Shown piece by piece: positions 4,964 to 27,494 of a stretch of DNA of 33,000 nucleotides. The stretch is from positions 1-33,000 of IMG/VR virus record IMGVR_UViG_3300007643_000036. One strand, 5' to 3'. Below the pieces are notes generated by a model. The model searched no databases, had not been told where the DNA came from, and saw only the letters and a list, made by a program, of their open reading frames with translations. This stretch comes from a virus (taxonomy: Duplodnaviria > Caudoviricetes). The stretch's first letter is position 1, and every line of letters begins with the position of its first letter. The translations under genes were made by a program, and so were the position numbers.

Positions 4964-4994
4964 AGGTGCGTTGGGGAAACCCGCGCGCCTTTTT
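4964..4994 (+). terminator. tR'-like intrinsic terminator
   Basis: AGGTGCGT-t-GGG-GAAA-CCC-GCGCGCCT hairpin followed by a T tract. Confidence 0.65.
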
Positions 4995-5015
4995 CGTTAC
5001 CCGAAAGGGGCAATC

Positions 5016-5297
5016 ATGAAATTCTTAGCACTTACAGCGGCGCTTCTTGCGCCTTCTTTCGCTATGGCACAAGCAAACTGCGCCCCAAGGGCATTTGCCG
5101 AAGAGCGACTGCGAAACACCTTTGGCGAGGTTATCCAATCACGCGGCATTCTTCGCGGCGCTATCTTGGAAATGTGGGCGAACACGGAAACAGGAACTTG
5201 GACTGCGGTAGTTACGACGCCGGACGGGCGGTCTTGCGTTGTGGCAGCGGGGCAGGACTTTGAATCGGTTCTTGAGCCAGGGGGCGACCCGGCGTAA
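5016..5297 (+). CDS. Small secreted protein with two cysteines (paralog of 24833..25123)
   Basis: Signal peptide MKFLALTAALLAPSFAMA; AAGGGG RBS. Confidence 0.75.
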   Translation: MKFLALTAALLAPSFAMAQANCAPRAFAEERLRNTFGEVIQSRGILRGAILEMWANTETGTWTAVVTTPDGRSCVVAAGQDFESVLEPGGDPA

Positions 5298-8143: not shown

Positions 8144-8515
8144 TTAGGTAAACTCTGGGGCGTAAGCGAACGATGGGAGTTGAGGATCATTGCGTTCAGA
8201 TTGAAATTCTGTCTGGTAATGATCTTCGCAAACGAAAGCAGCGGCGGAAATTGCGCCCTGCGCAAGCAGTCCAACCAGACTGCCCTTAGTCATTTCGTCA
8301 TGCTCAAAGTCGAATGTTTCACAAAAAGCCGCGTTCATGACCAGCACGGTTAAGTCGGCGTCGGAGAATCCATCTGGCCTTTGAGTTTCAGGCAATTCTT
8401 TAAGTATCTGCGATACCTCGAAAGATGTGTCACTGTAGTCGTCAATATTGGGGCGGAGACGCAGCCTAATTTGGCCCATAAACTCTTGTTCAAACTGCTT
8501 GCTTTCATTTTCCAT
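8144..8515 (-). CDS. Moron-like acidic hypothetical protein inserted between terS and terL
   Basis: 123-aa ORF on the opposite strand with its own promoter. Confidence 0.7.
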   Translation of the reverse strand: MENESKQFEQEFMGQIRLRLRPNIDDYSDTSFEVSQILKELPETQRPDGFSDADLTVLVMNAAFCETFDFEHDEMTKGSLVGLLAQGAISAAAFVCEDHYQTEFQSERNDPQLPSFAYAPEFT

Positions 8516-10342: not shown

Positions 10343-11577
10343 TGTTTGGTTTCGGCAAGCGCGAAAAACGGGGGGCGACATTTACGCAAGCAGAGCCGCG
10401 TTCTTTTTTGGAAATCATTGGCCTGAATGTTTCTGCATCGGTATCCATGGAGGAGGCGTTAGGCGTTCCCGCTGTTTGGGCCGCGATTAACTTTCTTTCC
10501 GGCACGATTGCGGGGTTGCCGTTGAACGTCTTTGAAAAGGACGCGAAAGGCAACAAAAAGAAGGTTAAGGGAACTAAGCCAAACCCTATTGTGCCAATGC
10601 TTCACGACGCCGTGAACGAAGGGACATCTTCCTTTCAGTGGCGCTATGATATGTTTTCAACGGGCGTTCTGACGGAAGGCCGATTTGTTACCTACATTGA
10701 GCGCGACGGACGCGGCCAGCCCATTAATTTGTTCCCGCTGGTTGATGCGCGGGTGCGCAGGACAGCAACGGGCCGGAAGGAATACACGGTCACGGTCAAC
10801 GGCAAAGATAAGACATATCCGGCGGCTGACGTGCTGGATATTACATTCATGCTGCGGAATGATCTGTTAACACACCGTTCGCCGCTTCGTCAGTGCGCTG
10901 TTGCAATCGGCAAGGCAGTAAATTCGAACGAATACGGCTCTAAGCTGTTTAAGAACGGCGGTCTACCCGCGTTTGCATTGCAGGGACCGTTTGGCTCTGA
11001 GAAATCAGCGTCAAGGGCGTCTGAGAATGTCGCGGAGGCAACTAAGAAGGCGGCACAGCAAGGCGGGAATGTTTTGGCTATCCCGTTGGGCCACGAGTTG
11101 AAGCCTTTGGGGGCTGACCCCGAAAAATTGCAAATGACTGAGGCGCAACGGTTCGCGGTTGAGGAAATTGCACGGATTTACAGCTTGCCGCCTACGTTCT
11201 TGCAAGACCTGACGCACGGAACATTCAGCAACACGGAACAGCAAGATCTGCACTTTGTAAAACACACCTTGAAGCGGTGGATTGAACAGCTTGAGCAGGA
11301 AATGAACCTAAAATTCTTTGGACGCGGATCAAATCGGTTTGTTGAGTTCAATTTGGATGGCCTTCTGCGGGGCGATTACAAAACCCGCATGGAGGGCAAT
11401 GCAAGGGCGATCCAGACCGGACAGCTTACGCCAGACGAGGCGCGCGCCATGGATAACCGTGAACCTAAGCCTGGAGGCGACCAATTGTTGATCCAAGGGG
11501 CAACGGTTCCGCTTGACGGACACACAGCCGATATGGCGACACAACCCACGGAAGGGGAAAACGATGGAGAAGCGTGA
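10342..11577 (+). CDS. Portal protein, HK97 family
   Basis: VPAVWAAINFLSGTIAGLPL; EEIARIYSLPP; TFSNTEQQ; LLRGDYKTR; TPDEARAMDN. Confidence 0.95.
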   Translation: MFGFGKREKRGATFTQAEPRSFLEIIGLNVSASVSMEEALGVPAVWAAINFLSGTIAGLPLNVFEKDAKGNKKKVKGTKPNPIVPMLHDAVNEGTSSFQWRYDMFSTGVLTEGRFVTYIERDGRGQPINLFPLVDARVRRTATGRKEYTVTVNGKDKTYPAADVLDITFMLRNDLLTHRSPLRQCAVAIGKAVNSNEYGSKLFKNGGLPAFALQGPFGSEKSASRASENVAEATKKAAQQGGNVLAIPLGHELKPLGADPEKLQMTEAQRFAVEEIARIYSLPPTFLQDLTHGTFSNTEQQDLHFVKHTLKRWIEQLEQEMNLKFFGRGSNRFVEFNLDGLLRGDYKTRMEGNARAIQTGQLTPDEARAMDNREPKPGGDQLLIQGATVPLDGHTADMATQPTEGENDGEA

Positions 11578-12133
11578 AATTCGCGCGGGAATCCCCGCCG
11601 AAATCAGGGCAGACGATGACGGCATAAAAGTTGAAGGTTATGCCGCAGTTTTTGACGAGGAAACCGACATTGGCGGCATTTTCCGCGAAAAGATTGAACG
11701 CGGGGCGTTTTCTGAGGCAATTGGCCGTGATGATGTGGTTTTTCTTATCAATCACGAAGGTTTGCCGTTGGCGCGGACACGTTCAGGCACGTTGACCCTG
11801 ACAGAAGACGACCACGGACTGAAAATTGAAACGGCGCTTGATCCAGATGACCCAGACGTAAAGTCGATTTCCGGCAAGATGAAACGCGGCGATTTGGACA
11901 AGATGTCCTTTGCGTTTTACCCCGAAATTCAGGAGTGGGACGAGGCAAGCGAAATCCCGCTTCGCACAATCAAAAAGGCGTCACTTTTTGACGTTAGCAT
12001 TGTGACAACTCCGGCTTATGACGGAACTGAAATCGCGCTGCGGTCCCTTGAGGCTGCTCGTAAGACCAAGAAACGATCAACACTACCGAACAAACGTCGC
12101 GTTCTGGAAATGATAGAACGCGGCCTGATTTAA
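11564..12133 (+). CDS. Prohead protease, HK97 family
   Basis: VEGYAAVF, FREKIERGAF, LINH, MSFAF and LFDVSIVTTPAY motifs. Confidence 0.95.
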   Translation: MEKREIRAGIPAEIRADDDGIKVEGYAAVFDEETDIGGIFREKIERGAFSEAIGRDDVVFLINHEGLPLARTRSGTLTLTEDDHGLKIETALDPDDPDVKSISGKMKRGDLDKMSFAFYPEIQEWDEASEIPLRTIKKASLFDVSIVTTPAYDGTEIALRSLEAARKTKKRSTLPNKRRVLEMIERGLI

Positions 12134-12157
12134 CGGCGCTCTCGCTGTTAACGCCCT

Positions 12158-12229
12158 AAATTCCGACCCTTGGGCAAGGTCTGGATTTGAACGCCGTGAG
12201 GCGTCCTGTCCCATTGATGGAGGCCATAA
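12158..12229 (+). promoter_or_regulatory. Structured 5' leader, copy 1 (upstream of major capsid gene)
   Basis: GACC-C-TT-GGGC-AA-GGTC, ACGCC-GTGA-GGCGT and CCA-TTGA-TGG(AGG) hairpins; homologous to 15692-15766. Confidence 0.7.
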
Positions 12230-13504
12230 ATGGCAACTTTGAAGGAACTGCGGGAGCAGATGGCGAACGCCGCCACCGAAGCCCGTTCTCTGCTTGATCA
12301 AGCATCGGCAGAAAAAGACGAAGCCCGTGCGGCTGAGTTGGAAACACAGCACGATAAAGCGATGTCTGACTACGACGCGCTGAATGCTAAAGTAGAACGC
12401 TTGTCAAAGCTGGAAAGCATTGAGGCGCGCGCTATTGAGGCTGCTGAAGCAGAAGAACGGGCCAAGCGTGAATCTAATCGCCCCGGCGCGGAAGCTGGCG
12501 AGGCACGTCAGGGCGGTGACATGGATTACGACGCGGCCTTTGTTGAATATCTGCGCAGCCAAGGCCAAGAGGGTTCAATGACCGCTGAGGCGCGGGCAAT
12601 CCTTCGCGGCGGATATGAGCAGCTTGAAGCACGTGCGCAGACAACTACTGCTGCGGCGGGTGGCTACACTGTCCCAACTGAAATGGCGAACTTTATCGTC
12701 AAGTCGATGGCGGCGTATGGTCCGATGTATGACTCCGATGTAACCATGGAAATGGTAACATCTGGCGGTGGTCAGATCACCATTCCAACAGTTGACGACA
12801 CTTCGGCTGTGGTTGTTAAGCATTCCGAGGGCGTTACGCTGACGGATGACGGCGGTTCTGACGTGACCTTCGGTCAAAAGACGCTGGATGCGTTCCCGTT
12901 CAACACTGAATGGTTGCGTGTTTCCAAAGAATTGGTTGATGACAGTGCGTTCAATGTCAATCAATTCTTGGGTGAGCTTCTTGGTGAACGTCTTGGGCGC
13001 CGCGCCAACACCGAACTGACTGTTGGTGATGGCACTGGCGACCCCAACGGCGTCGTGACTGCATCCGCAGCAGGTAAGACAGCCGCCGCAACGGGTGCTG
13101 TGACGCTGGACGAGTTGATCGACCTGATTCACTCTGTTGATCCGGCTTACCGGACCTCGCCAAAGGTGCGCTTCATGTTCAATGACGCAACTTTCGGTGC
13201 GCTTCGCAAGCTGAAAGATGGTGAAGGTCAGTATCTGTGGCAGCCTAACAACCAGCAGGGCGCTGCTCCGCTGTTTATGGGCCACAACTACAGCGTCAAC
13301 CAAGCAATGGCGTCCATGTCCACTGGCACCAAGCCAATCATCTTTGGTGACTTGGGTAAATATATCGTGCGCAAGGTTGGCTCGCCTTTGATTGGAGCAA
13401 TCCAAGACAAGGACTTCTGGCCCGGCTTTGGCATCGCTGGTTATATTCGCTTTGACGGTGAATTGACTGACACAGCAGCCGTTAAGCACCTTGTAATGGC
13501 CTAA
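12230..13504 (+). CDS. Major capsid protein, HK97 fold
   Basis: Coiled-coil delta domain, GGYTVP, VSKELVDDS, GDGTGDPNG, LRKLKDGEGQYLWQP and IIFGD motifs. Confidence 0.97.
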   Translation: MATLKELREQMANAATEARSLLDQASAEKDEARAAELETQHDKAMSDYDALNAKVERLSKLESIEARAIEAAEAEERAKRESNRPGAEAGEARQGGDMDYDAAFVEYLRSQGQEGSMTAEARAILRGGYEQLEARAQTTTAAAGGYTVPTEMANFIVKSMAAYGPMYDSDVTMEMVTSGGGQITIPTVDDTSAVVVKHSEGVTLTDDGGSDVTFGQKTLDAFPFNTEWLRVSKELVDDSAFNVNQFLGELLGERLGRRANTELTVGDGTGDPNGVVTASAAGKTAAATGAVTLDELIDLIHSVDPAYRTSPKVRFMFNDATFGALRKLKDGEGQYLWQPNNQQGAAPLFMGHNYSVNQAMASMSTGTKPIIFGDLGKYIVRKVGSPLIGAIQDKDFWPGFGIAGYIRFDGELTDTAAVKHLVMA

Positions 13505-13511
13505 CGATAAC

Positions 13512-13547
13512 GCCACGGGCGGTTCGCTGCCCGTGGCCCCTCTTTCC
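13512..13547 (+). terminator. Stem-loop after the capsid gene (weak terminator or mRNA stabiliser)
   Basis: GCCACGGGCGG-TTCG-CTGCCCGTGGC followed by an imperfect pyrimidine tract. Confidence 0.6.
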
Positions 13548-13561
13548 AAAGGAAAAGAACA

Positions 13562-13759
13562 ATGGCAAATGTTAAAGTTTATACGCCACAAGGCGGCAAT
13601 ACGCTGAACGTCGATGACGGTGGCGCGATTGTCTTGGGCGATATTACCCTGATAGTTAACGGCACTGATGTTGTTATTACAGGGCTTCCAACTTCCGACC
13701 CGTCAGTTGCTGGTGCGATTTATTCCAACAGCGGCGTTCTAACGCTGAGTGCTGGCTAA
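13562..13759 (+). CDS. Small virion protein (possible head decoration)
   Basis: Follows the capsid gene; contains LPTSDPSVAGAIYSNSGVL; AAGGA RBS. Confidence 0.6.
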   Translation: MANVKVYTPQGGNTLNVDDGGAIVLGDITLIVNGTDVVITGLPTSDPSVAGAIYSNSGVLTLSAG

Positions 13760-13944
13760 TGCTGGTTCGGCTTCTCGTCCCCCGTGCCACCCCGTTCGGG
13801 CCTGAAAGCATTGGGGACGAAATCAACGTCCCTGACGATGAGGCGTTGCGCATGATCAAAGCGGAGCAGGCCGAAATCGTCCAGACACGCAAGACGCCTG
13901 AAAAGGCGGTAAAGCGTCCAAAGGCAAGGAAGGCCAAAAAGTGA
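13759..13944 (+). CDS. Small basic-tailed head-module protein
   Basis: Coupled start; GDEINVPDDEALRMIKAEQAE pattern often seen after capsid genes. Confidence 0.65.
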   Translation: MLVRLLVPRATPFGPESIGDEINVPDDEALRMIKAEQAEIVQTRKTPEKAVKRPKARKAKK

Positions 13945-14519
13945 TTTACCGTTCGGGCGACCATATCCTGACACTGGCCACCGCTCCTGCGTCGATCCCC
14001 GTGTCACTGGATAACATGAAGGCACATCTGCGCGTTGATGGTTCCGATGAAGATATGCTGATTTCGGCCTATCTAAACGCGGCCACGGCTGCGCTGGATG
14101 GGGAAGGTGAGTTGAGCCGTGCAATCATCACGCAATCGTGGGACGAGGCATTCAAAAACCCGTCGCGCGATGTTTATTTGAGCATGAAGCCAGCGGCCAG
14201 CCTGACAAGTGTTAAATATTATGACACTGACAATGTAGAGCAGACTGCAACGCTTGGTGACTTCACGCTTTACAGTTCTTCGGATTGGGCCTTTGTGCGG
14301 TCTGACAGCTGGCCTGCCACATATGACCGCCCCGACGCGATAACGGTTCGATACGTGGCGGGTGAAGCAAGCGCCCCTGAAAATATCGTGCAGGCAGTCA
14401 AATTGATTGTGTCGCACTGGTATCAAAACCGTGAAGATACAAGCGAACTAAATCTAAAGGAAATCCCCCGCGCGGCCTCGCACTTGATCGGCCTTTCGCG
14501 GTTGGGATGGTATGGCTAA
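13941..14519 (+). CDS. Head-tail connector (gp6-like adaptor)
   Basis: PVSLDNMKAHLRVD..DED.LI and P..I.QAVKLIVSHWYQNRE. Confidence 0.9.
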   Translation: MIYRSGDHILTLATAPASIPVSLDNMKAHLRVDGSDEDMLISAYLNAATAALDGEGELSRAIITQSWDEAFKNPSRDVYLSMKPAASLTSVKYYDTDNVEQTATLGDFTLYSSSDWAFVRSDSWPATYDRPDAITVRYVAGEASAPENIVQAVKLIVSHWYQNREDTSELNLKEIPRAASHLIGLSRLGWYG

Positions 14520-14521
14520 CC

Positions 14522-14866
14522 ATGAAGCGCAACGGCAGGGCAGGCGCGCTTGATCAACGGGTGACGTTTCAGGCCAAAACCTTTGCGGATGACGGGGGCG
14601 GCGGTAGCACCGCAACGTGGGCGAATGTTCCTAGCGTTCCGACTGTTTGGGCTGCGGCTGAAGCCATGCGATCCATTGAATCAATCACAGAGGGCCGCGT
14701 GAATGCTTCTGGGCTTTATAGCTTCACGGTTCGCTATCGAACGGACATTGATGAAACCTGCCGCATTCTCTGGAATAGCGAGGCGTTCAACATTGTTGAC
14801 GTAAAGCGCAGCAGTGGGCGTGAACTGTATTTGGTTATTCAAGCCGAGCGCGGCGAACTGCAATGA
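14522..14866 (+). CDS. Head closure / head-tail adaptor (SPP1 gp16-like)
   Basis: AGALDQRVTFQ...DDGGGG...W...TVWA...FTVRYRTDI. Confidence 0.85.
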   Translation: MKRNGRAGALDQRVTFQAKTFADDGGGGSTATWANVPSVPTVWAAAEAMRSIESITEGRVNASGLYSFTVRYRTDIDETCRILWNSEAFNIVDVKRSSGRELYLVIQAERGELQ

Positions 14867-15267
14867 AATTCAACGGCACAATTCGCGGCCTTGATGACGT
14901 GAAGCAAATCCTGGAACAAGCCACGCCGAAGCACGGCGAAGCGATTATGCGTGCAACCGTGCATGATATTTCTGGCCAGATAGTGAAAGACGCAAAGCGA
15001 AACGCGCCAGAAGATGAAGGCGATTTGAAGGCGTCAATCAAAAACAAACGCCGCCGAAAGCGGTTTGGTGTTTTGAGGTCTGACGCGATTGTTCAGCGGT
15101 TTGCCTATTACTGGCGCTTTTTGGAATACGGTGATGGGCCGGATGGCGAGGAACACGCGATGTTCCTTCGTGCATTGCAGAAGATGAAGCCAAACATTGA
15201 ATCGGTGTTTCTCAACTCGTTCGGGAAAAAGTTGGTCGCGCGCCTGAATAGGGCAAGGAAAAACTAA
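14863..15267 (+). CDS. HK97 gp10-like neck/tail completion protein
   Basis: AKRNAPEDEGDLKASI and YWRFLEYG motifs. Confidence 0.85.
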   Translation: MKFNGTIRGLDDVKQILEQATPKHGEAIMRATVHDISGQIVKDAKRNAPEDEGDLKASIKNKRRRKRFGVLRSDAIVQRFAYYWRFLEYGDGPDGEEHAMFLRALQKMKPNIESVFLNSFGKKLVARLNRARKN

Positions 15268-15680
15268 TGGCTGCTGAATTTGAAATTCAAAAGGCGCTCT
15301 ATACCGCACTTAACGGTGACGTGACTGTTAGCGGCCTTGTGGCGTCGGTTCGGGATGCGGGACAGCAAGCGTCAGACGGCGGCGCAGCTTCGGCGTTTCC
15401 ATACATTGAGGTCGGTTTTATCTCGCTTGCTGAATACGACACGCAGCGCCAGACCGGGTTTGATTTTCTGGCACGCATTCACACTTGGAGCCGCAGCGCG
15501 TCCATGAAGGAAGTGAAGCTAATTCAGGGCGCTATTTATGATGTTCTGCACGTTCAGAATTTAACGATTACAGGTCACAGCAATATCTTGCTGCGGCGTG
15601 AGGAAAGCGACGTATTGCGCGCCTCAAGCGGGGCGTTTCACGGCGTCTGCGAATATCGGGGTCTTGTCGAAAAGACATAA
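15267..15680 (+). CDS. Tail terminator (DUF3168-like)
   Basis: IQKALYTAL, FPYIEVG, IHTWSR and FHGV motifs; synteny. Confidence 0.85.
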   Translation: MAAEFEIQKALYTALNGDVTVSGLVASVRDAGQQASDGGAASAFPYIEVGFISLAEYDTQRQTGFDFLARIHTWSRSASMKEVKLIQGAIYDVLHVQNLTITGHSNILLRREESDVLRASSGAFHGVCEYRGLVEKT

Positions 15681-15691
15681 ACCGAAAGCCC

Positions 15692-15766
15692 ATTCATCGC
15701 GCCTTGGGCAAGCGCGTTTGATTGAGCGCCGTGAGGCGTCCAATTCCCTTTGAAGGAGCCTAAACA
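15692..15766 (+). promoter_or_regulatory. Structured 5' leader, copy 2 (upstream of major tail gene)
   Basis: CGCGC-C-TT-GGGC-AA-GCGCG, GCGCC-GTGA-GGCGT and CCT-TTGA-AGG(AG) hairpins. Confidence 0.7.
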
Positions 15767-16168
15767 ATGGCAAAGACTGCGGGTAGAGACTACCTTATCA
15801 AAAAGAACGATGTCACCATCGCGGGCGTTCGCGTTGTTGGCATGACATGGGCTGGACAGCCTATCGACGTTACGGATCAAGGCGATGATGGGATTACAAC
15901 CTATCTTGGCAGTGAGTTTGCAAACGAAACGCTTGAAATCTCGGTTGAAGGTGTTGAAGACGGCGACGTTCTTGCCGATCTGGCGTTTGGGACAACCTCT
16001 TCGGCGCGTCACTTGACTGACATTACCATTGACCGCCCAAATGGCGATACGGTGTCAGGCACATTCATCATGACAAACTATGCTGAAACCGGGAACTACC
16101 AAGAGGCGACAACCTTTACGGCCAGCCTTGTTCGTTCCGGCATCCACACACTGACGCCGGGTGCGTAA
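15767..16168 (+). CDS. Major tail tube protein (TP901-1/GTA-like)
   Basis: MAKTAGRDYLIK...IAGVR...PIDVTD...G.F..T......G.Y.EATTFTASL..SG pattern. Confidence 0.85.
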   Translation: MAKTAGRDYLIKKNDVTIAGVRVVGMTWAGQPIDVTDQGDDGITTYLGSEFANETLEISVEGVEDGDVLADLAFGTTSSARHLTDITIDRPNGDTVSGTFIMTNYAETGNYQEATTFTASLVRSGIHTLTPGA

Positions 16169-24655: not shown

Positions 24656-24836
24656 ATATGTTGTTCCTGATGTGCCTGACGAACTGCGGCAACCCTGCTC
24701 TGTCGCGCAGCGCGACTACGATACGTTGCTGGATATTGCCCTGATCCTGACCGATCACGTTGAATGTCTGGAAACTGCAAACGGGCGCATTGTGGCGGTG
24801 GACGAAATTCTAACCAAAGCAGAGGGGCCGCAATGA
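24588..24836 (+). CDS. Rz1-like outer-membrane spanin lipoprotein
   Basis: Lipobox LTGC; VPDVPDELRQPC; overlaps the 3' end of Rz in another frame. Confidence 0.75.
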   Translation: MMSRCLMLCAIFLTGCSQQIRTEYVVPDVPDELRQPCSVAQRDYDTLLDIALILTDHVECLETANGRIVAVDEILTKAEGPQ

Positions 24837-25123
24837 TGCGCGCGTTTATCGTCGGGCTTTTGTTGAGCGCGCAGGGCGTTTTGGCTCAAGTCATACCGTG
24901 CAACGATCGCGAAGTGATTGCTGATAATCTCACCAACAATTTTGACGAACATCGGCTCGGCGCCGGCATGCGAAGCGAAACGATAATCGTTGAAGTATGG
25001 GCGTCACTGGAAAGTGGAACATTCACGGTTCTATTCACCGATGTAACTGGCCTGAGTTGCGTTCTCGCAACCGGAATTAACTGGACCAACTTCGACCCAA
25101 CGCCAGAAGGCGATCTAAACTAG
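24833..25123 (+). CDS. Small secreted protein with two cysteines (paralog of 5016..5297)
   Basis: Signal peptide; shares the C..R...L...F.E...G...E.WA..E.GT.T...T...G.SCV.A.G pattern. Confidence 0.75.
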   Translation: MMRAFIVGLLLSAQGVLAQVIPCNDREVIADNLTNNFDEHRLGAGMRSETIIVEVWASLESGTFTVLFTDVTGLSCVLATGINWTNFDPTPEGDLN

Positions 25124-25733: not shown

Positions 25734-27494
25734 ATGGCCTTTCCGGTAATTGAGAGCGTCGCTGTCACAGACGCCAAAAGCACCAGTATAAACGCTGACA
25801 TGCCTTCGGGCGTGGTGAGCGGTGATTTATTGCTGATGCTAATCGGTGTTCGGGGCGATGCTCTTGATGTAGGCTTTCCTTCGGGTTGGACTGCGCTTGA
25901 GGAAGACATCTTTGATGATCCGTGCTTTGCCGCTTGCTGGAAAATCTCGGATGGAAGTGAAGGTTCCACAGAAACTGTTACATTCGATGATGACAAAGAT
26001 ACCGTCATTTCCACATTCAGGATTAGCGGACACAACGACACCGCGCCTGAATTAACCACAGCCACTGGCGACAGCGATACACCTAACCCGCCAAACCTTG
26101 TTCCAAGTTGGGGCAGCAAGGAAACGCTCTGGATCGTCTTTGGCAACGTCAACGATGGCAAGACGTTTGAAAGCATCCCTGCAAACTACAGCACTGAGGT
26201 CACGCAGAAAGAGGGCCAGTGTTCGGTTAAGATCGTTTCCCGCGAACTTGAGGCGACAAGCGAAAACCCCGGCACCTTCGGGATCGGTTCGAATCGTGAG
26301 TGGTATTGCGTCACCGTAGGCATTGAGCCTGCTTCTGCTGGCGGTTCACTGGAAACCTCTGGTGGTGTGACGGTTCCTGTCGCCACCCTGTCAGGATCGG
26401 CTGCGGCATCTGGTTCAGCGTCTGGGGGCGTAACTGTTCCAGTCGCAACTCTATCCGGTTCTGCGGCTGGTGCGGGTTCTGCATCGGGTGGCGTTTCTAT
26501 TCCGACACAAACGCTTTCCGGCAGTGCGGCGCTGGAAGTCGCTGCGTCCGGTGGTGTGGAAATTCCCCTGCAAACGACTGCGGGTTCTGCTGATGCGTTG
26601 GCCGCTGCGTCAGGGGCAATTGAAATGCCTGTGCCGACACTCGCAGGCAGTGCGGGGGCGGAAGTCGCAGTGTCTGGCGGCGTGGAAATTCCGGTTCCAG
26701 GGCTTTCCGGCTCCGCTTCGGCGTCTGCGGTTGCATCTGGCGGCGCAACGATACCGGTTCAGGATATCTCTGGCGCAGCATCGGTGGCAGCTGGATCTCT
26801 GGCCGCTTCTGGCGGCGTATCTATCCCCGTGCAGTCACTATCAGGCGCGGCGGGTGCAGAGGCTGGTTCAAGCGGCGGCGTAACACTGCCCATCCTGACT
26901 CTATCAGGCAGCGCAGGGGCGTCTGCTGACGCTTCGGGCGGGGTCACTGTGCCGTTGTTCGAGCTTTCCGGCTCTGCTGCTGCGTTGGGGGCCACATCGG
27001 GCGCGATTAGCGTTCCCGTTCCATTGGTGTCTGGATCGGCCAGCGCGGTTGCACAGGGCGAGTCTGCTACTGGCGCGGTTTCAATTCCGCTGCCAACGGC
27101 CATTGGATCAGCTGCGGCGGCTGGTGCGGTATCAGGCGCAATCACAATTCCGGCGGCGATTATAAGCGGGGATTCTGCGGCAATCGCAGGCGTCACTGGT
27201 GGCGTCAGCATACCGATTGCGACGGTTTCGGGTTCTGCGAACGCCCAGGCAGACGTATCAGGCGGGGTGAGCATTCCTGCGCTGACAATTGCAGGTAACG
27301 CGGCGGTGTCAGGCATTTTGTCGCCATTCTTCGTTTCACCCGCAAACTCGCGGCAGGTTGGCACACTCACGGCATCACGCAAAATCGGCAGCGTGTCACC
27401 TTCTCGTAAGGCAGGCACAGTCACGGCATCCAGACGCGCGGGAACGCTGACCGCTTCGCGCAACGCAGGAACATTCACAAGATTTGAGGCATGA
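25734..27494 (+). CDS. Repeat-rich fibre-like protein
   Basis: ~200-aa globular N-domain, then 15 copies of a 21-aa repeat SGGV.IP...LSGSA (two are 24 aa), then five 9-aa T.TASR.AG repeats. Confidence 0.75.
   Translation: MAFPVIESVAVTDAKSTSINADMPSGVVSGDLLLMLIGVRGDALDVGFPSGWTALEEDIFDDPCFAACWKISDGSEGSTETVTFDDDKDTVISTFRISGHNDTAPELTTATGDSDTPNPPNLVPSWGSKETLWIVFGNVNDGKTFESIPANYSTEVTQKEGQCSVKIVSRELEATSENPGTFGIGSNREWYCVTVGIEPASAGGSLETSGGVTVPVATLSGSAAASGSASGGVTVPVATLSGSAAGAGSASGGVSIPTQTLSGSAALEVAASGGVEIPLQTTAGSADALAAASGAIEMPVPTLAGSAGAEVAVSGGVEIPVPGLSGSASASAVASGGATIPVQDISGAASVAAGSLAASGGVSIPVQSLSGAAGAEAGSSGGVTLPILTLSGSAGASADASGGVTVPLFELSGSAAALGATSGAISVPVPLVSGSASAVAQGESATGAVSIPLPTAIGSAAAAGAVSGAITIPAAIISGDSAAIAGVTGGVSIPIATVSGSANAQADVSGGVSIPALTIAGNAAVSGILSPFFVSPANSRQVGTLTASRKIGSVSPSRKAGTVTASRRAGTLTASRNAGTFTRFEA
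26358..27320 (+). repeat. Degenerate 63-bp coding tandem repeat (about 15 units)
   Basis: 21-aa periodicity is visible in the translation; codons have diverged between units. Confidence 0.85.

Follow-up and report, generated by a model that had tools for sequence, protein, structure and literature searches.

A modular, pseudoknotted RNA leader of virion protein genes common to double-stranded DNA and single-stranded RNA phages

Hundreds of capsid and tail-tube subunits are made against a dozen portal subunits from one late phage message, an old question whose answer is usually ascribed to unexplained differences in initiation. It is raised anew by IMG/VR record IMGVR_UViG_3300007643_000036, a whole virus record of 33 kb with an HK97-type late operon (33,000 nucleotides, all of which were analysed; hereafter the window), in which one structured RNA leader stands directly before both the major capsid and the major tail gene. 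This element is a real and widespread RNA family outside Rfam. It belongs to a known kind, the structured leaders of phage structural genes, and is distinguished by being modular, pseudoknotted and common to double-stranded DNA (dsDNA) and single-stranded RNA (ssRNA) phages. From sequence comparison we consider it a likely docking (standby) site for the 30S subunit or S1 which enhances initiation at the genes of abundant virion proteins, a reading to which we assign a probability of roughly 0.55.

Fold of the leader

The two copies lie where the original prediction, made from the sequence alone, had placed them: copy 1 at 12165-12229 before the ATG at 12230, and copy 2 at 15699-15766 before the ATG at 15767. 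An exact 11-mer and, at a distance of 13-14 nt, an exact 15-mer are common to both. A calculation by hand puts the chance expectation in 33 kb at about 0.6 occurrences for the 15-mer on its own and at about 1e-6 for the two together. That the window holds these two copies only, first judged by eye, was borne out by R1, a covariance model built from 33 DNA-phage copies (both window copies included), which returned no third with its filters off, and by a core-only model. R1 scores the two copies, both in its training set, at 76.9 and 78.9 bits, and the next match at 9.9 bits. The folding energy of the copies is no better than that of shuffled sequences (z -0.40 to 0.15). Nor is the element a named RNA family: Rfam 15 yielded no family at either copy on the right strand and span at E≤10, and no match in ten homolog loci.

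Where three simple hairpins had been drawn, comparison of homologs reveals a pseudoknot, a GUGA hairpin with an A.C or C.C mismatch, and a marginal hairpin at the Shine-Dalgarno (SD) sequence. The homologs come from an exact pattern that fixed only the loop of the first stem (P1) and the SD element, and which is estimated to occur in about 290 viral stretches of IMG/VR; among the matches listed there are at least 126 loci and 97 distinct copies, the latter being the denominator of all counts out of 97 below.

In copy 1, P1 (12165..12181, plus strand, as are all features of both copies) consists of the four pairs GACC/GGTC, as defined by the pairing counts in homologs, around the 9-nt loop CUUGGGCAA. 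Its counterpart in copy 2 (15699..15715) has the arms GCGC/GCGC around the same loop, CUUGGGCAA. The covariation first noticed between these stems is real, the three free positions being paired in 97, 96 and 85 of the 97 listed copies against shuffled means of about 44, 44 and 54; controls slid along the sequence, with counting outward from fixed anchors, gave values at or below chance. The proposed extension of the stem past a bulged C by UU:AA pairs has to be given up: U2:A9 is broken in 6 of 33 protein-anchored copies and none compensates. The GGGC drawn as its tetraloop pairs upstream instead, within a loop of 9 nt.

The partner upstream is GCCC, at 12153..12156 in copy 1 (pairing with loop GGGC 12172-12175) and at 15688..15691 in copy 2 (pairing with GGGC 15706-15709). 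In 90/97 copies, compared to 27 in shuffles, P1 is preceded by a GCC at a distance of 4-13 nt. The base after GCC tracks the variable base of the loop and all four Watson-Crick combinations occur (G with C 122, A with U 6, C with G 10 and U with A 3, in 207 pooled copies from 85 protein clusters); with one representative per cluster and loop state, this fourth position is Watson-Crick in 57/81, against 33.7 when shuffled. The predicted upstream pseudoknot, GCCN:NGGC, is thus supported by covariation, and is confined to the P1 module of the DNA phages. Further upstream in copy 1 a predicted hairpin, P0 (12132..12149, seen in the sequence), lies over the stop codon of the protease gene. It is found in the capsid leaders of this clade, its 3' arm being present in 62/66 HK97-capsid-like leaders, and is absent from copy 2.

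The second hairpin, P2, was correctly predicted in its GUGA loop and its covariation, and is the portion common to ssRNA phages. It was followed in 144 core copies, the core being P2 with the SD element; of 164 rows these are the 144 that remained once repeated N-termini had been removed, and in the pattern used to find them GUGA was fixed, as were some bases of the inner stem. The architecture is four inner pairs, one further pair, a mismatch and two outer pairs, capped by GUGA or by GUGA plus one base. The further pair is formed in 104/144 copies (55 shuffled) and the outer pairs in 125/144 and 108/144 (62 and 58 shuffled), while the mismatch is A.C or C.C in 89/144; alignment-based covariation scores concur (0.44 versus 0.14 and 0.39 versus 0.14). 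In copy 1 (12189..12206) P2 comprises G-C, the A.C mismatch, A-U and four pairs, with GUGA at 12196-12199, and in copy 2 (15723..15742) U-A, G-C, A.C, G.U and four pairs, with GUGA at 15731-15734.

The third element reads UCCC-N6-GGAG, at 12209..12225 in copy 1 (SD 12219-12222) and 15745..15760 in copy 2 (SD 15755-15758), each span including a GCC (12223-12225 and 15758-15760). It can form a marginal UCC/GGA hairpin (P3), whose energy in this register amounts to 0 to -0.2 kcal/mol. The change from CCA/TGG to CCT/AGG, formerly read as covariation, did not survive: the pair is formed in 21/97 copies where 23.6 are expected under independence, and U.U is the commonest state of the position (64/97). 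UCC/GGA is kept in the protein-anchored variants, and the whole SD is pairable by P3 together with the downstream GCC.

The P1 loop might alternatively pair with the GCC at 12223-12225. A GCC directly at the SD end occurs in 55/58 core copies with P1 and 14/86 without, and it tracks P1 regardless of a Met-Ala start (54/57 versus 12/78); it is co-occurrence, and not covariation, that suggests pairing between the loop and the SD side. When metagenomes were scanned for loops with another base in place of the first core G, two stretches came up, one genuine and already in our set, the other without P1 pairing, and the core GGC is therefore nearly invariant, as might be expected if it had two pairing partners.

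Distribution among DNA and ssRNA phages

A start codon follows GGAG by 4-10 nt in all 97 distinct copies. Among the matches listed, 89 of the 96 downstream products of at least 25 aa are virion proteins by best PHROG match. These comprise 54 major capsid proteins (48 of phrog_10, and 6 from phrog_212, 1005, 29 and 1328), 31 tail tube or major tail proteins (24 major tail, plus 7 of phrog_290, for which the single protein checked in Pfam is a tail tube) and 4 decoration or scaffold proteins; the remaining 7 are without assignment. The virion proteins represent six capsid families and several of tail tubes. A sample anchored on the capsid protein gave a congruent result. Its 80 loci (641 kb, about 810 coding-strand ATG frames of at least 100 aa) contain 62 R1 matches at E≤0.01, every one on the coding strand, and the 51 distinct matches inspected all cover capsid or tail-tube starts, six of them identified by PHROG and the others by N-terminal likeness. 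A scan anchored on the tail protein supplied three loci only. In GTDB the core pattern is found in 64 stretches, of which the titles name Alphaproteobacteria in 42, unclassified Proteobacteria in 9 and other groups in 13, the last being mostly metagenome-assembled genomes whose binning may be wrong. Carriers include prophages of Euryhalocaulis caribicus and Mesorhizobium sediminum.

The element is modular, the P1 pseudoknot and the P2/SD core occurring separately. P1 without P2 was found in 46 rows with paired arms and an open reading frame (ORF) of at least 60 aa; the 25 proteins scanned include 17 of capsid or tail-tube type, 1 integrase and 7 without assignment. The core without P1 makes up 86 of the 144 core copies. 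Fifty-four of its 78 downstream proteins were scanned, the others being omitted as near-repeats, with 12 capsid, 10 scaffold, 9 tail and 4 protease proteins and 19 without assignment. The element is not, as had been supposed, restricted to two genes or to one late transcript, since genes for scaffold, protease, sheath and ssRNA coat have the core in front of them as well.

Several individual loci may be mentioned here. A core copy precedes a P22-like portal gene (L757:541-1032), whose product is made in low copy number and thus breaks the high-copy rule; this may be the first gene of its operon. An unannotated 255-aa family (phrog_8234; loci L136, L191, L140, L239 and L359) is repeatedly found with the leader, which suggests a major tail protein. 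Two core copies about 450 nt apart stand before consecutive head genes in a Phyllobacterium leguminum prophage (L264:1034-1083 and 1491-1539), and by eye tandem GUGA hairpins occur within one leader in ssRNA loci L620/L669 and L688 and in DNA loci L113, L128, L260, L278, L299, L315, L341 and L411. P1-less capsid leaders such as L007, L016, L027 and L073 carry a different conserved element (GAGAACGGC ... GCCYAU) between the protease and capsid genes, often replacing P0/P1.

Three products at first without assignment resembled levivirus coats. The replicase domain PF03431 was detected in 3/5 records tested, the other two being DNA-phage contigs, and in 5/5 of five further pattern matches; the gene order in the ssRNA records is maturation, motif, coat, replicase, all on the same strand. 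In a replicase-anchored sample of 58 loci, the GUGA hairpin with CC..GGA is present in 17/36 distinct Steitzviridae coat leaders (three of these being seeds), and 3 of 13 GenBank Steitzviridae leaders carry the core (BK014121, BK014120 and BK013831). R1, whose training copies all come from DNA phages, gives the coat leader its top score in 19/19 ssRNA records picked as motif-bearing, 18 of them at E≤3e-4, and has no match at E≤0.5 in seven ssRNA records picked as motif-less. The motif gives 23 strong matches in 56 ssRNA loci, all ending at the coat start, with the next at 12.5 bits. On a replicase tree of 38 rows the motif needs at least four gains or losses, three of them forced by strong branches, against 12.7 in shuffles; its distribution is clustered and is compatible with a single gain together with losses.

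The distance from the end of the GUGA loop to the SD is 19-21 nt in 148/155 DNA-phage and 17/17 ssRNA-phage copies, where the search patterns permitted 16-25 nt. No P1 was seen in the ssRNA copies inspected. That a non-coding element of equal sequence, fold and spacing should occur in dsDNA and ssRNA phages is unexpected, since they have no genes in common, and it points to a host translation surface exploited by both virus types. It may also hint at alphaproteobacterial hosts for uncultured Steitzviridae.

Function and rival explanations

The view that this is a cis-acting, covarying RNA before the genes of the highest-copy virion proteins is upheld, and since the core occurs in ssRNA phages it acts at the RNA level. 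In such phages an internal gene comes with neither promoter nor terminator nor DNA site, and a cut at that place would be unaffordable. From this position inside an ssRNA genome it follows that the shared function acts on intact RNA at the start site, and a DNA site or promoter is excluded as that function. Of the three roles put forward originally, translational enhancer, protein-binding operator and processing or stability signal, it is translation initiation that gains most and processing or stability that loses.

The SD sequences are of ordinary strength (-8 to -9.5 kcal/mol, not above those of the portal or protease genes), and something else must therefore favour these starts. An extended SD was considered and rejected: the conserved bases 5' of GGAG gain at most 0.2-0.6 kcal/mol with the fetched 16S tails. 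What is found is a structured element at a constrained distance upstream of a weakly sequestered SD (P3 about 0 kcal/mol). We propose that the GUGA hairpin, at its fixed 19-21 nt from the SD, would dock on the 30S platform, or on S1, during SD pairing, and that translation of the most abundant virion proteins would thereby be initiated more often; the weak UCC/GGA hairpin would open on pairing of the SD with 16S rRNA. In DNA phages the P1 pseudoknot would be an add-on, whose upstream pairing keeps the SD free and offers S1 a second pseudoknot handle. Should the upstream strand be unavailable, the loop might pair with the SD-end GCC and damp initiation, which is the least certain step. The reader of the element is likely a host translation component, because the downstream proteins are mutually unrelated and the ssRNA phages bring no DNA-stage factor. 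The effect on initiation is presumably positive, because ssRNA coat, capsid and tail tube are all high-copy products, and the element may in this manner set virion protein stoichiometry.

The closest working model is the standby site of E. coli tisB, where a 5' pseudoknot is required for S1 and 30S binding (PMC7708055, in the portion available). In both, the ribosome-binding site is structured and is preceded by a small 5' pseudoknot. The tisB site differs in working from about 100 nt upstream and in its need for processing as well as for a single-stranded stretch, whereas the present hairpin lies 19-21 nt from the SD; there is no sequence likeness between the two. A broader proposal, to which we give slightly less than an even chance, is that of a virus-specific ribosome-docking RNA, a small bacterial analogue of the translation enhancers of viruses, spread or converged across tailed dsDNA phages and Leviviricetes and unused by host genes, to which the DNA phages have added a two-partner pseudoknot gating the SD, the whole forming a portable part that sets capsid, scaffold and tail-tube output from a single late message.

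A number of observations weigh against a docking site that enhances initiation. A fold that can cover the SD by pairing could equally well repress. Host genes might be expected to use a ribosome enhancer of general effect, and no such use was seen above chance: 23 of 401 genomes of the class Alphaproteobacteria matched a loose pattern, against 28 for the reversed control. An R1 match is present in 39 of the 73 capsid leaders with upstream sequence, many close relatives lacking the element, which is therefore common yet dispensable in the clade; the motif was likewise not found in phages 16-3, vB_LagS-V1 and RHph_Y3_1, nor in the ssRNA phage phiCb5. On the SD side, covariation between GCC and the loop at the fourth position is weak (32/75 versus 25, p 0.03), and of the loop variants L145 fits this pairing and L003 does not. 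Lastly, the shuffle tests of pairing ignore kinship among the copies.

An operator is the best of the other explanations, and an unlikely one. A host RNA-binding protein on the GUGA hairpin would keep the SD closed, through UCC/GGA and the loop:GCC pairing, and thereby limit or time the synthesis of high-copy proteins. The whole SD can indeed be paired by P3 and the downstream GCC, and the invariant unpaired bases (GUGA, the A.C mismatch and the loop CUU..GCAA) resemble a protein site. Hairpin operators also repress translation in ssRNA phages (PMC3561173, in part), and the MS2-type operator resembles our element in being a hairpin at a start codon. That operator, however, covers the replicase start and is bound by coat protein, and the available text of the same source, which names a 5' hairpin, the replicase operator and a 3' domain among ssRNA-phage structures, describes no such coat leader; the present core lies upstream of the coat SD, is common to DNA phages, and scores only at coat starts. 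P3, moreover, is worth only 0 to -0.2 kcal/mol, and it is difficult to see why viruses of two realms should repress the proteins that they need most.

We regard as rather improbable a stability element which protects or defines the 5' end of a processed or newly started mRNA, and thereby makes the capsid and tail messages longer-lived than other parts of the late transcript. A strong hairpin (13512-13537) does stand behind the capsid gene, the core of locus L320 begins a few bases past a sigma70-like promoter match (similar boxes are seen elsewhere by eye), and a 5' pseudoknot could block a 5' exonuclease. The ssRNA-phage core is, however, internal to a genome that must remain whole, and stability does not call for a fixed distance to the SD. 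A promoter scan found none at locus L305, and 8 in the late region of the window where 8.4 are expected.

A pseudoknot that alternatively pairs onto the SD end is the layout of small translational riboswitches, and P1 with its two possible partners might be such a ligand-sensing switch, tying virion synthesis to the state of the host. The H-type pseudoknot with near-invariant unpaired loop bases would suit this, as would the alternative pairing onto the SD end. It is nevertheless improbable to a marked degree, as there is no Rfam riboswitch match at E≤10, the downstream genes encode virion structure with no metabolic theme, and none of the ssRNA copies inspected has P1, which 86/144 core copies lack as well. 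Very improbable is a binding site for a virion protein, or an assembly-nucleation site, serving autoregulation or packaging: structural genes alone are involved and ssRNA coats do bind hairpins (PMC3561173, in part), but six capsid families, tail tubes, scaffold, protease, sheath and levivirus coats share no fold to read one RNA, and DNA phages do not package mRNA. An antisense phage small RNA that opens the leader, or a DNA-level site (promoter, operator or nut site), is the least credible of all in spite of the near-palindromic P1 core, because no site on the opposite strand of the window (the record may be incomplete) matches the P1 loop with one mismatch or fewer, and because the arms change sequence yet keep their pairs and the core occurs in viruses without a DNA stage.

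Related RNAs, gene setting and host

Mu-gpT-DE is a predicted cis-regulatory structured RNA directly upstream of phage head genes. GP20-a (RF02991), GP20-b (RF03003) and six GP20-type candidates (PMC10690425, in part) are likewise predicted cis-regulatory RNAs in that position. The GP20 types are tied to one gene family, whereas the window element precedes many unrelated virion genes and ssRNA coats and is without an Rfam match. The nearest published candidate is DNAVirus_1925 (Fremin et al. 2023, PMC10690425, as far as available), which is unnamed, 68 nt long and represented by 202 sequences from marine or aquatic Caudovirales; 174 HK97 capsid genes and 17 of Phage_tail_2 type have it no more than 25 nt away. 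Compared by length and gene context only, it is like the window element in its equal length (68 nt) and in both gene types, and may be the DNA-phage form of the motif. As listed there, it has two covarying bases only and no host, pseudoknot or function, and the available text states that no DNA-virus candidate turned up in the RNA-virus set.

No description of the element was found in the literature covered, from which subscription journals are mostly absent; the accessible part of 10.1101/2022.02.15.480533 holds nothing on such a leader, and the main text of PMC5737381, as available, makes no mention of capsid or GP20. Blastn of the motif against GenBank phages gave nothing, or chance matches inside coding regions. 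Searching 151 host genomes with the model, with 29 candidates scored per genome, produced only weak matches of 18-25 bits. One P1-like stretch, in Dinoroseobacter sp. S375 (L694:1871-1933, minus strand), lies just upstream of the RNase P RNA gene; at 14.1 bits and with half of the stem paired it is probably due to chance.

Mimicry of two host RNAs was considered and rejected. P18 of type A RNase P RNA, in fetched alphaproteobacterial RNAs, is similar in having a GNRA-capped hairpin of about eight pairs and then a similar purine-rich strand, but has no A.C mismatch and other spacing; the match (9.5-10 bits, E 0.06-0.13, in one of five RNAs) is not significant. Mimicry of 23S rRNA was dropped along with that of P18, no score within the fetched RNAs exceeding 10 bits.

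The late genes of the window are ordered terminase, portal, protease, major capsid, connectors, tail terminator, major tail, tape measure and lysis genes, according to PHROG. The prohead protease gene (11567..12133, plus strand, phrog_80) begins at an ATG at 11567, the ORF being callable from a TTG at 11513, and its stop codon (12131-12133) opens the leader of copy 1. It is followed by the gene for the major capsid protein of HK97 type (12230..13504, plus strand; phrog_10, E 1.6e-68; PF05065). Directly 3' of the capsid stop, and outside the motif, is a GC-rich hairpin of nine pairs on the plus strand (13512..13537), evident in the sequence. It has no U run on the coding strand, a terminator scan lists it on the minus strand, and it is a possible 3' stabiliser or partial terminator. 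The stop codon of the tail-terminator gene (15678-15680, plus strand) lies 7 nt before the GCCC of copy 2, and the major tail (tail tube) gene occupies 15767..16168 on the plus strand (phrog_1407, E 1.3e-5; PF06199, E 1.2e-4, below the cut-off).

The closest cultured relatives of the capsid protein are those of Roseibium and Rhizobium phages, at about 50% identity, from which the host of this virus is likely alphaproteobacterial. As a covariation-backed part of 45-85 nt the leader is testable in a reporter, and it could serve as an expression part for Alphaproteobacteria.

Elsewhere in the window, tandem 15-nt repeats at 20-169 likely belong to a minus-strand pentapeptide-repeat gene extending past the window start. 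A 123-aa ORF without PHROG match (8144-8515, minus strand) is antisense between the genes for the small and large terminase subunits. Two paralogs of phrog_25396, a family of unknown function, are located at 4971-5297 and 24764-25123, the first preceding the repair exonuclease gene and the second following the lysis genes. Behind a virion structural gene lies an Ala/Pro-rich, repetitive ORF of 586 aa (25734-27494), which is likewise without PHROG match.

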